From a virus (Duplodnaviria; Heunggongvirae; Uroviricota; Caudoviricetes): DNA of 18,580 nt. The stretch lies in the IMG/VR virus record IMGVR_UViG_2537562015_000012; one strand, given 5' to 3'. Shown here one piece after another: positions 9,001 through 18,000 of the stretch (position 1 is its first letter; each line of letters begins with the position of its first letter). Made by a program: the position numbers.

Positions 9001-12000
9001 TGGCTACCCATTGCGGCATGGGCGAATGTTGAAATGTGTATTGACGGCGATACCGTTGAAATCATTATTCCCTGCGTGGCAAGTCGGGACGGCTGTATAG
9101 AGCCAACAGATATGGCAGCAGAAATCAGAGAGGTAAAACATGAACAATAACTATTGCATACTGCAGGGAATGACCAGAACGGAGCGCGAAGAATTAAAAA
9201 GTTTCGCTACACAGTGCGGGAATGCTGGCGACATCCAAAGTCTGGAACGCACTTTAATTATGATTGCGCACTGGATGCGCCAGGGGCAAAGAGTTTCATT
9301 TACTGAATATGCCAGCCAGTGGACAGAGGCACAGCGCGAACGGAGCGACGGTAATCACTCAACACCCGAAATGGCGAAGCAATGGCCTTTCAGTGGTAAA
9401 CGCTGTATCAGTCCCGGTGGTTCAGATTATTACCCTGCTGGTGTGGGAGATGAGCCATGTTGTGACGAGACTGAAATCCGCCACGCAGTGACAGTAATTA
9501 CCGCTGAATACCCACAATTTAACCTTGACGGACTGGCGCTCCACAACCGGAATGCGGACTGGGAAAACCCGCTTGATAACCCGTCATTTATCGTATCGGC
9601 GAAAAGCTGCCTGAGATGGATCAGAGACAACGGGATGAGTAATGCCCAGATTGAGAGCTTCCCGCAGGATAACCCCACATCTGACACGTTGAAGCATGAA
9701 GTGGAGCGATATAACCAGATAAACCACCAGCACAGTGATCACCCGCACTATATCCCCAACGGAGCATTTATTGCGGCGATGGTGGCAAGCGGCTACAAGG
9801 TTAAGCCAGCGGGAAGAATGAACGCATTTTTCAATATTTCAAAAAAGGGATTATGTGCTGCTATGGGTAAAAATTAAATAAATGGTACAGGTCTGTACAG
9901 GTGGGGAGAGGTCATTTTTACCCACCTGTACCACCTGCAGGCCGCGCCACACAAGGGTTTGTGACATGGTGGTACAGGTGGTACAGCAAAAACAGCGATT
10001 TTCTTTATAAGGTATGTTTTGCTCATCTGGCAGACGGAGGTATTCGCTGCGGTTTGGCACATAGCCCAGAACAGCAAAGAGTTTTACGAGACTTTTGTAA
10101 AATCCAGTGTACAAGGGCGTGACGTTTTTGAAGGTGAGCACTACGAAATTTTCGTAGTTCAAAAAATAGCCTCTGAGATGTTGTTATGCCTGTTCAGCAA
10201 ACCATCCGCATAGCTGATCGCGAATCAAATTACCAATGGAGCCAGAAGCAAGGGCAGAACTGGAAAGCGCCTGCCGTGAAGAGTAATGCGACTCCATAAA
10301 TATAGTTTTTAGAGTCCATAAAAAAACTGTCAAAACCTGACATACAGAACGATGCCACCAGCTACTGAACGGTGGCATTTTTTTGTGCTATTTGTTTCAT
10401 ATTTTGCAATCACAATGATGAATGTTGCGTTTTATGAAACTATAATGACTGTTGTTTTATACAGTTCTAAGGGGGGCGTTATGGCTATTTCAGTAAAGCC
10501 AGTATTGATAAGTGAGAAGCAAATGGAAGCGATAAAGAAAATTCAGGAGGAGCAGCGTAAAAAATCAGAGGTAGGAGTTGCGCCAACGATCCACGAAATT
10601 GCTCGGGGATTAATGGATAAGGCGCTGGCTTACACTTTAACTGGACGTGGGTAAATTTATGGCTACGTGGCAACAGGGTATTAATTCTGGTGGTTTTCTG
10701 GCTGGCATCGGTGCGCAAAATGAGAATGCGCCAAAGGCAAGCGACATTAACGCAACGCTTGGTCTGATCCGCGAAAACAATGAACTGGCTCGCTCAGGTG
10801 CAAATAACGTTGCTCTGACAGGTCTTCGTGGTCTGGCTGGAGTTGCTGACATTTATAAGCAGCAGCAACAGCAGGAACGTAAAGCGGCATTCCAGAAAGG
10901 TTATGCAGATGCTTATGCGTCCGGTGACAGGGAGCAGATGCGTAATCTTATTACAGCATTCCCAGAAGAGTTTGAGGAAGTCCGTAAAGGGATGAGTTAT
11001 GTCGATGATGCTCAAAGGGATGATTATGGCAATCTGGCGCTCAAAGCACAGGTAGCCTCATCGCTTGGTCAGGGCGCATTTGGCAGGTTCATGATGGATA
11101 ATGAGCAGGAGATGCGTCGTTTAGGTATCCCTCCAGAAACTATTGCTGAAATGCAGGTTAATGACCCGCAGGGCTTCCAGCATTTCGCAGGTAATCTGGC
11201 GCTGTTTTCTCTCGGTCATGAGAAGTATTTCGATATCAAAGATCAAATGGAAGGTCGTCGACTTGAGCAAGGGCGACTGGATGAAAGTATGCGTCAGGCT
11301 GACATGGAGAACGCGAGAGGATGGGCAAATATCCAGAACGCTCAACTAGACAGGGCTCAGCGAGCACAAATTCACTCAGATGAGATGGGATTGAAGCTAA
11401 TGGAGCTGGGGCAAAAAGGTAAGCCGTCAGCAGACTTAATTAAGGGATTAAATTCTGACATTACCAATTTTGGCAAAAATTATAACTCTGTCAGAGCGGC
11501 GGCAAACTCTCTGCAAGCCCTTAGCAAGGTAAATACTGGCGCTGCCCAACTTGGGATTATCTTCAACTACATGAAATCTCTTGACCCGCAGTCAGTCGTT
11601 CGTGAAGGCGAACAGGTTCAGGTAATGCGGTCTGATGGCATATGGGGACAAATCAAAGGATACATAGACCAGCTTAATGCTGGAAACGGCCTGTCGCAGG
11701 AGGCAAAGGATAACATTGTTAACGCCGCAAAAATCAACGCCAATGCTATGGGGCAGCAGTTTAACCAGCAGGTTGACGAGTATCTCGATACATATGGAGA
11801 AACTATTCCTCAGGGGCTAAGAAAAAGCCTTGAAAGAAGGAAAGCGAAGCTATTTGACGATGTTTCCGGGCAGCCTACATCACAGGCTGGCACTGGACAG
11901 GCAAAAGCGGCAACCGGAGGAATATCAGAAGGCGCAACGGCAACCAACCCTAAAACTGGTCAGAAAATCATTTACAGGAACGGAAAATGGCAGCAAATGT

Positions 12001-15000: not shown

Positions 15001-18000
15001 CACCTTTCAGTGTCCGAAGGGTAAAAAACATCAATTACATAAGCAACACCAATTGGTATTAATGCTAGTAATAACATCGACACAGGACGTACAAACTTCT
15101 GAACTATATCAATTTTATAGAACCACAAGGCGGTATGTTTAATGATATAAGTAAAGATGGCTGCGCCAATAATGGCAAAAAACACCATCGATAAAGTCGG
15201 GTATAACTTTGCGACAATTAAACCCAACAAAATAATTATAACTGCCTGCCCCCTCACACCAACCCTCCCTTTAGCTTTGTTTAGAATGGCAATCATCATA
15301 TATCCAAGACATGGCATTTGGTACATAGCTTGGGTCGGGATTTCAAATCCGCTCCCCGTTGATGGGGCCGTTACAGTACGCGCATATCCGCTTTATGTGA
15401 AACAGGAAGATTTTTCTGATATCACTGCCACAGCAAAACACCAATTTCGTGACCAGTACGCGCGCGAGGTGTATCAGTTGCAAAATTTTTTGCAGCTGTG
15501 TCCGACCAGTACGCACGCGATGGCGGGGAGCACCATAAAACTGTTCTCTACATAAGACAGAGTGGTGGTGATGTGTTGATTATCGGCGTATATGCGCACA
15601 GGACGCGCTATGACGATGTTTTATGCGGGTACACCAATCACATGTATCTGGTGTGATAAATCGCGTTACATGACCTCTCATGTTGTGCTGGTGGTTATCA
15701 CGACGTTCTGAATCTGGCCTTTGCCTGATATTTTGCGACAAGTACGCGCGCGTAGCATCGACAGCATACACATTGGATATTCATTTTGTGACCAATGCGA
15801 TAAGTAGCGGGATAAGAATTGATAAAATCAACAGGACGATGATCCACTTCTGATTCTCGTCCATCTTATCTGCTAGGCGACGCTCCATTCCGTGCATATC
15901 ACCGCGAATGGCAATCATCTCATTGCGAACATCCGAGAAGTGGTTGGCTTGATGTTCAATGTGTGGCGTTCTGCCTTTCATTCCTGATCCTCACCTATCG
16001 TCACCACCTGCTGGTGTATAAAGGTATTGGCCCAAGCAGCTTTCTAATGGGCACTCATGTTTATACGCTGACCTTACAATCAATCACCGCTTTTAACTTT
16101 TCAGCATTGCTTCCCTGACGCTTCCACGCGCTGTAAATATCTTTATCCCACGCTTTACCAGCTTTTGTTTGATAGCCTGCTTCATTGATCCGTTCAGCTA
16201 TCACACGCCCATTATCAAATCCCTGTCGGATGGTATCGGCAATGATCTTTATAACTGCCGTTTCGTTATATGGCTTTGGTGGGATGTTCGGCTTTCCGGC
16301 AATAAGCGACGCAGCGGCTTTTTCCATGCGCTCCACCAGCCCAAGCATTCGTGAATCAATAGACTTTTCCGGCTGTCCCAGCTTCATGCGAATCGCATCA
16401 ACAAGCCAGGAGGTTTTATCCCCTCCAGAAGCGAGAACAGACCGATTAAACTCATCCTGCAATTCAGATGGGATGCGGAACGCGACCAGATTAGATTTGC
16501 TCATTGCAAAGACCATATCAGTGAGTAATATCCATACAGTATACCACTGTATAACACTGTTATACGCTCAAATATCAACCAGAAAATAACGGACCAATCA
16601 CAAAGCTATCGCTGTGTTGTTGGTTCAGAGCTGGACTGTGTTGGTTCAAAATGAGTTGATGTTGGTTCAATATTTCTGAAAAAACACAATAAAAACAACG
16701 ATCTTTACAAATTGAACCAACTGAACCAACACCTTTTTGCTTATCTATATAATCTGAGAGGCAGAAATGATAAGGGACAGGAAAGCTGAAGAGCTGGAGT
16801 CAAAAGGGCTATACCGGAGAGCTGCCGCACGATGGGCAGAAGTCATGATGCTGGCAGATGGCGATAAAGAACGTGAACATGCAGCAAACAGACGCTCTGA
16901 ATGTATCCGTAAGGCGGCACGCCAACCAGCAACTACAGACAGATTCGGAGATTTAAGACAGGCAGTTAAGCGGACTCATTCGGCTCTTGGTATGGATGAG
17001 GAAGCGAGAGGGTACTTCAGGCGTTATCGCGATAAAGATTGCCAGAGACAGTAATGCTCTCTCTGTTTTGGCAAATTACCCCTCACTTTGAAGGGATCGG
17101 AGCTATAAAAATGGTGTTATCCGGCTTCCTCAAATTTAGGTTTTCGAAAGAATCAATGGGTTAGGTCATCGTGCAAATTTGCACTCTGCCAGCCAACGCA
17201 ATTTCTCGTTGGCGGAAATATCAGGTATTTACTGAACGAACGGTCTACCAGTCTGTTCAGTTACCAGTTGCACATGGCTGTTTCATGTGAGAACGGAGGT
17301 TTTTTCGGACATCGCTATTGGGTACAGCAATTTCACGAGCAATACGCGCGCGCAGGACAACAAGCCTGAACATGGTTACACACCTCGAGCCTGAGGGATG
17401 TAGGCAATGGCTTCTGACCAAAGCACCCGAAAAAACCGTGTACATAAGGGTGTACATAATCAAAAATCGCATTAGAAAGAAACCAGCCACAATGCGGCAT
17501 TGAAGCCAACACTCTACAAACAGATTCAAGAGTAACTCGTAACACTAATTCTTACTTTTCAGCCTTCACAAATGCCGCCCACTCAAACAGAGCGGCATTT
17601 TTCTTCCCCGCAACTTCAATTCTGTTTTGCGTGCCTGCTCCAGATTTTGCGATGTTTTTTTGCCCAGCACACTGAGAACGTGAGATACTCACAACTGTAT
17701 ATAAATACAGTTACAGATTTACTTTCTTTGCAATCGATATCACATGGAGTGGGCAATGAACGAACATCATCAACCTTTTGAAGAAATACGGCATTATGGC
17801 ACTGAAGGGCAAGAATTTTGGTCAGCTAGAGAATTGGCACCGTTACTGGATTATCGGGACTGGCGCAATTTTCAAAAGGTACTGGCCCGCGCGACTCAAG
17901 CGTGCGAAGCCAGCAATCAAGCTGCATCTGACCATTTCGTTGAAACCACCAAAATGGTTGTATTAGGTTCAGGGGCTCAACGAGAACTTGAAGATGTTCA

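Follow-up and report, generated by a model that had tools for sequence, protein, structure and literature searches.

A phage satellite of Escherichia coli whose late zone carries a captured pair of P22-type ejection protein genes

Introduction

The subject of this report is a gene cassette in an 18,580-nucleotide (nt) stretch of DNA filed as IMG/VR virus record IMGVR_UViG_2537562015_000012 (hereafter the window), in which three coupled genes on the plus strand, a small leader gene and two large genes, meet a convergent gene for a membrane protein. The region is the late zone of a Gram-negative phage-inducible chromosomal island (PICI), a phage satellite of the EcCIMP1 family, at the yicC/dinD site of Escherichia coli, and the block behind its leader is a matched pair of gp20 and gp16 genes, with the membrane gene, captured from P22-like phages (Lederbergvirus) and placed under a satellite promoter. 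Gram-negative PICIs are built of four zones in the order Integration-Bro-Replication-Late, the last of which picks up late genes of helper prophages (PMC10111431), and one of them, EcCIMP1 of E. coli MP1, has been verified by experiment and has the P22-like phage Kapi1 as its helper (PMC11773190; Pick et al. 2025). In P22, the capsid is loaded with the ejection proteins (E-proteins) gp7, gp20 and gp16, which leave it at infection and form a trans-envelope conduit for the DNA (PMC10883804, PMC8402733). A first-pass annotation had taken the cassette for a candidate undescribed cargo system. Its two large products have confident homology to characterised virion proteins, and the element is of a known kind rather than a new defence system: a PICI late zone that has taken up helper genes, and one related to a published satellite. 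We set out below the genes and features of the locus, their origin and distribution, and the role that they may have in the satellite.

Organization of the cassette

The plus-strand unit encodes proteins of 57, 447 and 698 amino acids (aa; 705 aa for the last before interruption by an insertion sequence), with a 4-nt gap between the first and second open reading frames (ORFs) and a 16-nt overlap between the second and third, and its coordinates and tight coupling are as first annotated (Table 1). Equally sound were the descriptions of the terminator and TATAAT hexamer upstream, both real and conserved in related loci, and of the AT-rich convergent gene, which has a G+C content of 35.6% (47% for the window), encodes four hydrophobic helices and ends 19 nt from the native stop of the gp16-type gene.

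Table 1. Coordinates of the features of the cassette in the window.
Feature	Position	Strand	Remarks
Intrinsic terminator	10353..10384	+	Closes the upstream replication/ori zone; stem ATGCCACC/GGTGGCAT, then T7; kept in E. coli relatives
-10 hexamer TATAAT of the late-zone promoter	10441..10446	+	Invariant in 6/6 aligned loci from three genera
LexA (SOS) box-like palindrome GACTGTTGTTTTATACAGTT	10447..10466	+	Directly 3' of the -10 hexamer
Satellite-specific leader protein, 57 aa	10481..10654	+	Two predicted helices
P22 gp20-type ejection protein (assigned by sequence), 447 aa	10659..12002	+	PF16928, phrog_917
gp16-type ejection protein (assigned by sequence), 698 aa, IS1-cut (native 705 aa)	11987..14083	+	phrog_6704, phrog_770
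IS1 insertion, 768 bp	14079..14846	+	9-bp target duplications at 14070-14078 and 14847-14855
Displaced native 3' end and stop of the gp16-type gene	14856..14881	+	Joining 14078 to 14856 gives the 705-aa ORF
Convergent four-helix inner-membrane protein, in the sieA slot	14901..15296	-	131 aa in RefSeq; likely true start GTG 15257, 118 aa
Conserved non-coding right flank of the cassette	15332..15761	.	Four GCGCGTACT(G/T)GTC repeats

Two large proteins of P22-type ejection families

The 447-aa protein matches PF16928 (Inj_translocase, 'DNA/protein translocase of phage P22 injectosome') over residues 12-219 at E=2.5e-73, with a score of 246.8 bits against a curated cut-off of 29.7, and also phrog_917 (4e-132). 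It is 74.7% identical to gp20 of Kapi1 over the full length and 53.8% identical to gp20 of P22 over the conserved N-terminal residues 1-212. Its gene adjoins and, through the 16-nt overlap, runs into a gp16-type gene downstream, as in Kapi1, and genes for gp7 and gp14 are absent upstream. On these sequence grounds we assign the protein to the P22 gp20 family of ejection proteins, which make up the periplasmic tube of the DNA-delivery conduit. Some sources name it 'acyltransferase'.

The 705-aa protein matches phrog_6704 from end to end (6e-173), a sequence type that it shares with gp16 of Kapi1, and over residues 113-654 it matches phrog_770, 'DNA transfer protein' (1.1e-50), the family into which P22 gp16 itself falls (2.3e-266). 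No match to PF26808 (Phage_P22_gp16) was obtained in the Pfam copy scanned, in which the presence of that family is unconfirmed, and the sole Pfam hit at E<=1 was at chance level (Nbl1_Borealin_N, E=0.079). PDB sequence searches with the two large proteins returned nothing meaningful, and an NCBIfam scan of the cassette proteins gave chance-level hits only. Full-length homologues with the same 16-nt overlap stand at the gp20 and gp16 positions of Kapi1, E212, Sf101 and some 40 P22-like contigs of IMG/VR (about 40 kb each). Identity to the gp16-type protein ranges from 41 to 63% across P22-like phage homologues; it is 41-44% for Kapi1, E212 and the ~40 contigs, and 62% for the gp16-position protein of a metagenomic P22-like phage contig (L009; handles of this form are our labels for the loci compared).

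Two peculiarities of the 705-aa protein that the first-pass annotation had recorded, the tandem LPEGFVLD/LPDGFVLD motif (residues 7 and 28) and a pair of Gly/Ala-rich stretches (about 118-180 and 603-649), are present and conserved in the phage homologues. The repeat and the first Gly/Ala segment lie within an N-terminal module, some 190 residues long, in which these homologues are nearly identical, the remainder being mosaic. We regard the protein as a gp16-type ejection protein. The statement that the cassette matches no virion family is contradicted by PF16928 for the one protein and by phrog_6704 and phrog_770 for the other, and of the hypotheses then offered the correct one is that the element has co-opted ejection or internal-type proteins from a phage, as the gp20-family and gp16-type identities show.

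In the window the gp16-type gene is clipped by IS1, labelled IS1 family transposase in RefSeq and flanked by the 9-bp target duplication TTACTTGGC, with the effect that the last eight native residues, LSNDPDND, are swapped for R and the product is 698 aa long. Excision of IS1 in silico yields a 705-aa ORF that ends at 14881 and is 99.9% identical to WP_000729826.1 of enterotoxigenic E. coli (ETEC) H10407. IS1-free alleles, which the first-pass annotation had proposed to look for in related genomes, do exist, that of ETEC H10407 being an example, and the IS1-bearing allele occurs in three complete genomes.

A convergent membrane gene in the sieA slot

The longest ORF of the convergent gene spans 14901-15326 (141 aa), RefSeq starts it at 15296 (131 aa), and a ribosome-binding site, GGGAGG, together with alignment to the ATG of a phage homologue suggests that the true start is the GTG at 15257, for a predicted product of 118 aa. 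Position and orientation are those of P22 sieA, which is convergent and lies 22 nt after gene 16. A homologue with 47% identity sits in the same slot of the P22-like contig L009, beside Arc/Mnt/Ant, and a second type of membrane protein, which has its first 33 codons in common with the first and differs in its C-terminal part, accompanies P22-type gp16 and is carried by phage L010 and the PICIs L007 and L011-13; other P22-like phages have a 75-aa membrane protein or secreted proteins in the post-gene-16 slot. After the non-P22 cassettes of other genera we found no convergent membrane gene, only spurious antisense ORFs, so the gene goes with the P22-type block rather than with the satellite.

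Identity with SieA itself was considered and rejected, given a BLASTP match at E=2.1, absence of the FxRYPxEAxxFNK motif and no hit to phrog_7745, in which P22 SieA, as a control, scores 9e-109. A tblastn search with the membrane gene against 50,697 phage records found nothing, and the AlphaFold2 model of the protein is of low confidence, with a predicted local distance difference test score (pLDDT) of 60 and a predicted template modelling score (pTM) of 0.33. The 430 bp to the right of the gene (15332-15761) are 95.6% identical to EcCIMP1 and 93.8% identical to the P22-like phage contig L010, and may have a part in recombination, as a flank, or in regulation.

Promoter, predicted SOS box and leader

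Immediately after the -10 hexamer comes a palindrome of the form CTGT-N8-ACAG (10449-10464) with 14 of 20 matches to TACTGTATATATATACAGTA. The window has two such CTGT-N8-ACAG sequences against 0.24 expected, and the second is the SOS box of dinD. The latter box, AACTGTATATAAATACAGTT, located upstream of dinD at 17693-17712 and with 17 of 20 consensus matches, was the internal positive control of the LexA-box search. A scan upstream of TATAAT found no -35 consensus. The composite TATAAT-N-ACTGT-N8-ACAG is kept, with differing spacers, in 13 loci that belong to Escherichia, Salmonella, Serratia, Erwinia, and some Pantoea and Lonsdalea. From this arrangement the late-zone promoter is probably under LexA control, and the palindrome should cover the predicted region of transcription start.

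The leader protein has 45 homologues, none of them with a Pfam domain of its own and all that have a named source from Enterobacterales; in EcCIMP1 the homologue is 53 aa long. No match to it was found in 50,697 phage records. Its gene has a ratio of nonsynonymous to synonymous substitution rates (dN/dS) of 0.07-0.13, which points to purifying selection, and it belongs to the satellite backbone and not to the captured phage block. The protein had at first been called ribbon-helix-helix (RHH)-like, a label for which we found no support, with no Pfam hit at E<=1, a best Foldseek match in the PDB of E=5.9 and an hhalign probability of 0.2% against Arc/Mnt. Its AlphaFold2 model (pLDDT 74) has an extended N-terminus and two helices, a shape compatible with RHH and not diagnostic of it.

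The satellite island and its setting

The window matches E. coli E1648 at 100% identity, and there an island of about 17.5 kb lies between yicC and dinD in the order integrase, AlpA, AntA and Ash, P4-type primase with iterons, the ejection-gene region, two small genes, and PerC. Rfam models for isrK (60.5 bits) and the C4 antisense RNA (79.9 bits) match at 4433-4660 (+), inside a 355-aa 'Ash family' ORF, and C4/isrK so placed is the P4 CI/seqA-type immunity RNA arrangement known from the 'Bro zones' of PICIs. Over about 6 kb, the window and EcCIMP1 are 84-96% identical. The island follows the Gram-negative PICI plan, with integrase and AlpA, a Bro zone with immunity RNA, primase/ori and a late zone, has a size in the range of about 10-20 kb, and contains neither lysis genes nor a full set of virion genes. 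Of the earlier assignment to the P4 family there remain the P4-like primase and the C4/isrK RNA, to which the P4-like features of the island are limited; the PICI plan and the kinship with EcCIMP1 go against it, as does the result that no Pfam match to Psu or Ogr/Delta, by which P4 manipulates its helper, was found among 24 window ORFs scanned (whether Pfam has a model for Sid was left unchecked). Homologues of gp7, gp14, Arc, Mnt and SieA were looked for across the window, and none was found elsewhere in it.

Several further features of the island lie outside the cassette. Right after the replication genes, at about 9880-10000, are direct and inverted GGTACAG-type repeats, likely the replication origin; EcCIMP1 and Serratia islands, with a DUF927-type primase, have other repeats at the same place (GGTTCAGTT / TGAACCAACA), so that each primase type goes with its own iterons. 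The next 270 bp or so, up to the terminator (10078-10350), are 93% identical in EcCIMP1 and other E. coli islands and hold no convincing ORF; with an intrinsic terminator at its end, this stretch might represent a small RNA or else a small ORF. On both sides of the island, in the yicC-int and PerC-dinD spacers (L001 positions 5633 and 23150, the latter being 17449 of the window), stands the 12-bp direct repeat GGTGTACATAAT, which may be an att core. An accessory region of variable content separates the late zone from PerC; it here encodes two small proteins (15781-16516, -) and in relatives encodes Abi_2 family proteins or RnlA/RnlB toxin-antitoxin genes (L006 14116-15078; L014-L016, L021-L022); genuine defence cargo of such islands is likelier to be found there.

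Capture, exchange and conservation of the block

The gp20, gp16 and membrane genes travel together, yet they recombine as modules. We found the IS1-free four-gene block, at an identity of at least 98.7%, in 84 of the 5426 complete E. coli genomes, and for both the 447-aa and the 705-aa protein (two 90% clusters) intact sequences are known from at least 1000 contigs. Of the four genes whose co-variation the first-pass annotation had proposed to check, three make up this captured block, and the 57-aa gene is part of the satellite backbone. Behind the same backbone and leader, L006 has gp20 and a P22-type gp16 followed by a secreted protein; L011, L012 and L075 have gp14-gp7-gp20-gp16 and then a 130-aa membrane protein; EcCIMP1, behind its leader homologue, has gp14 (DUF2824), gp7, gp20 and an SLT-bearing gp16; and L008 has a 223-aa protein alone, named 'peptidase M41 family' in RefSeq.

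The N-terminal domain of gp20 is 96% identical between the window and L006, and the remainder of gp20 differs. Phage contig L010 and PICI L011 have gp16 proteins that are 99.7% identical (synonymous divergence, dS, of 0.014) and gp20 proteins that are 41% identical, and Kapi1 and the window are 85-89% identical in DNA over the gp20/gp16 junction. These patterns, together with the 94-96% identity of the 430-bp right flank in EcCIMP1 and phage L010, point to recent exchange of cassettes by recombination at conserved flanks. The dN/dS of the cassette is 0.09-0.23 in informative pairs and 0.16 in the pair formed by two PICI copies. Decay is seen in two relatives, with an internal stop in gp20 of H10407 (L002 16359-17702) and a deletion from primase to gp20 in ETEC6334 (L007 5882-6590). 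A comparison of EcCIMP1 (L005) with its helper Kapi1 (L003) gives identities of 83% for gp14, 57% for gp7 and 24-26% for gp20 and gp16, so that it is in the two targets of SieA-type exclusion that satellite and helper are least alike.

Leader-linked cargo across enterobacterial genera

When the leader gene was traced through 12 enterobacterial genera (L015-L024, L075-L089), the genes next to it were found to encode genome-delivery proteins of helper type, with L008 as the single exception seen. Escherichia and Serratia have P22-type ejection proteins there; Leclercia, Klebsiella and Pectobacterium have internal virion proteins that bear SLT domains, and Klebsiella quasipneumoniae has an SLT protein accompanied by a Dit-like one; Pantoea, Erwinia, Chimaeribacter and Lonsdalea carry tape measure proteins of full length, and Rahnella carries a baseplate hub. 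In the literature searched there is no report of the SOS-box promoter, of the satellite-specific leader, or of consistent genome-delivery cargo across genera.

A broad generalization, which we advance tentatively and would not be surprised to see fail, is that a single enterobacterial satellite lineage (AlpA-AntA/Ash-primase) keeps a swap-in slot, made up of a promoter, often with an SOS box, and the leader, for the genome-delivery proteins of its type of helper. The purpose might be to replace virion parts targeted by exclusion, so that satellite particles can inject into helper-excluding lysogens, and the co-captured membrane protein of the sieA slot might represent a new exclusion family.

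A possible role in satellite DNA delivery

The best explanation of the whole, to which we give a probability of roughly 0.6, is that of a PICI late zone whose captured ejection pair serves delivery of the satellite DNA. DNA damage that induces a P22-like helper prophage would also lift LexA from the satellite promoter, so that satellite gp20 and gp16 would be made during assembly of helper procapsids and loaded into them, with gp7 and gp14 supplied by the helper. At the next infection, the satellite gp20 and gp16 would be ejected and would build the section of the conduit that spans the periplasm and inner membrane, for entry of the satellite DNA. The membrane protein, expressed from the resident island, would most likely act as an exclusion factor of prophage style at the inner membrane. 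This function of the cassette within the satellite is one that we infer, as are the steps that lead from expression of its genes to incorporation of their products and any benefit to the satellite. The genetics of P22 lends the scheme some background, because P22 virions take up foreign E-proteins, and gp16 and gp20 of Sf6 work together with P22 gp7 while either alone leads to non-infectious particles (PMC10883804), which makes a two-gene gp20/gp16 cassette plausible. Escape from SieA maps to gp16 and gp20, and generalized transducing particles are excluded by SieA as well (PMC10883804); since both proteins are targets of SieA-type exclusion, a different matched pair could admit satellite particles into lysogens that exclude the helper.

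Several considerations weigh against delivery as the role of the pair. That satellite-made E-proteins enter virions, or that transfer needs them, is something we infer, and binding of LexA at the promoter is predicted, many related genera having a palindrome that is one base too short. Such proteins would also load into particles containing helper DNA, so that specificity for the satellite is not obvious. EcCIMP1 is transduced at low frequency, and a Kapi1-like prophage is present in 2 of 21 strains that carry EcCIMP1 (PMC11773190). The membrane protein has no detectable sequence similarity to SieA, and its model has a pLDDT of only 60. Finally, gp7 and gp14 are missing from the window and some copies of the block decay, as with IS1 here, the internal stop in gp20 of H10407 and the deletion of the primase-to-gp20 stretch in L007.

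This incompleteness and decay, including the IS1 in the gp16-type gene, are also what a decaying recombination remnant of a P22-like prophage, with no role for the satellite, would display. That the block is such passive baggage seems to us distinctly improbable, as its dN/dS is well under 1, the pair of two PICI copies included, and as the intact clusters are so widely found and the block so well conserved in complete genomes; moreover, different types of E-proteins have been installed repeatedly at one place, behind a conserved promoter and leader, and functionally analogous genes occupy the same slot across 12 genera. A weightier rival, though still one that we hold unlikely, is interference or defence, in which satellite gp20 and gp16 act as mismatched, dominant-negative subunits that spoil helper virions or, when produced within the cell, the conduit of a superinfecting P22-like phage and, with the membrane protein, provide superinfection immunity of the EcCIMP1 type. 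Mismatched gp16 and gp20 in P22 indeed result in normal numbers of non-infectious particles (PMC10883804), the gp20 and gp16 of EcCIMP1 have diverged from those of its helper far more than has gp14 (24-26% against 83% identity), and EcCIMP1, on which no known defence system was found, adds to the immunity of lysogens to Kapi1 (PMC11773190). Yet EcCIMP1 does not lower the titres of induced Kapi1 and does not protect non-lysogens (PMC11773190), spoiled injection machinery in virions would harm the satellite's own transfer just as much, and the cargo of other genera, such as full-length tape measure proteins, resembles working parts and not inhibitors.

Any defence function would have to be of an undescribed type, since PADLOC-DB yielded only a chance-level hit for the 57-aa protein (Cas11a, E=0.017) and none for the other three. 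The same scan tells against a further proposal, made in the first-pass annotation and to us very improbable, that the 705-aa protein is a membrane-active toxin and the four-helix protein its immunity partner in a new defence or toxin system. It was suggested by the Gly/Ala-rich amphipathic segments of the 705-aa protein, the small membrane protein encoded beside it and the location in a mobile element; however, both large proteins are homologous over their full length to virion ejection proteins, with synteny kept in about 40 phage genomes, the Gly/Ala segments and LPEGFVLD motif are conserved in the phage proteins, and other phages and PICIs have unrelated envelope proteins in the post-gene-16 slot, so that the pairing is not obligate. 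We found no support for an effector with an immunity-like partner.

Use of the captured pair in satellite DNA delivery, our preferred explanation, would bear on how satellites reach new hosts. It is known that satellites take over capsids, terminases and tails; DNA-injection proteins of their own are barely documented. Were satellite ejection or tape measure proteins loaded into helper particles, they would provide a simple route past the exclusion systems of the lysogens that satellites must reach, and there would also be a candidate gene for the unexplained superinfection immunity mediated by EcCIMP1. As for annotation, two widespread 'hypothetical' proteins of E. coli can now be named, and one candidate 'new defence system' can be struck from the list.

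Comparison with known systems

With the E-proteins of P22, Kapi1, E212 and Sf101 the cassette shares protein families, lengths, gene order, the 16-nt overlap, the LPEGFVLD repeats and the Gly/Ala-rich segments, and as in P22-like phages the C-terminal half of gp20 is inherited with gp16 as a pair. Unlike their counterparts in these phages, the island genes sit without coat, portal, tail, gp7 and gp14 genes, and behind a satellite promoter rather than in a phage late operon; unlike that of P22, the island gp16 is of the phrog_6704 type, has no match to a Pfam family, and is clipped by IS1.

EcCIMP1 resembles the island in its backbone of AlpA, AntA, DUF4222, Ash and small ORFs, in which two proteins are identical, in PerC, in having E-protein genes downstream of the primase, and in the late-zone promoter with leader gene (93% DNA identity) and the 430-bp right flank. 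The two differ in integrase and attachment site (yicC/dinD for the island, tRNA-Thr for EcCIMP1), in the primase C-terminus and in the iterons. EcCIMP1 carries gp14, gp7, gp20 and a 906-aa gp16 with SLT, then a co-oriented lipoprotein gene, whereas this island has only gp20 and gp16, of another type, and then the convergent four-helix gene. The authors of the EcCIMP1 study called such genes 'DNA transfer' or packaging candidates and not ejection proteins (PMC11773190). Late zones of Gram-negative PICIs as described by the Williams laboratory (2023; PMC10111431) are alike in the four-zone order, in C4/isrK within the Bro zone and in nucleotide-level sharing with helper-type phages; the difference is that the study dealt with late genes of lambda and P2 type and reports capsid genes as the commonest in PICI late zones, and its main text does not use the terms 'ejection', 'Inj_translocase', 'DUF2824' and 'LexA'.

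The membrane protein is like SieA of P22 (Leavitt et al. 2024, PMC10883804) in being a small polytopic inner-membrane protein encoded convergently right after gene 16, next to gp16 and gp20, the genetic targets of SieA. It is unlike SieA in sequence, motif and the want of a phrog_7745 hit, and, with 118-131 aa, is shorter than SieA (162-164 aa).

A more distant parallel is operon I of the staphylococcal pathogenicity islands (SaPIs), which Ubeda and colleagues (2007, cited in PMC6092414) reportedly described as a LexA-repressed packaging and morphogenesis operon of these satellites. Its genes and host are unrelated to those of the island, and its functions concern capsid size and terminase, in contrast to ejection proteins under a LexA control that is here predicted. 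What the two have in common is a satellite operon of virion functions that exploit the helper, preceded by an SOS box (a predicted one in the island), the expression of which would match induction of the helper.

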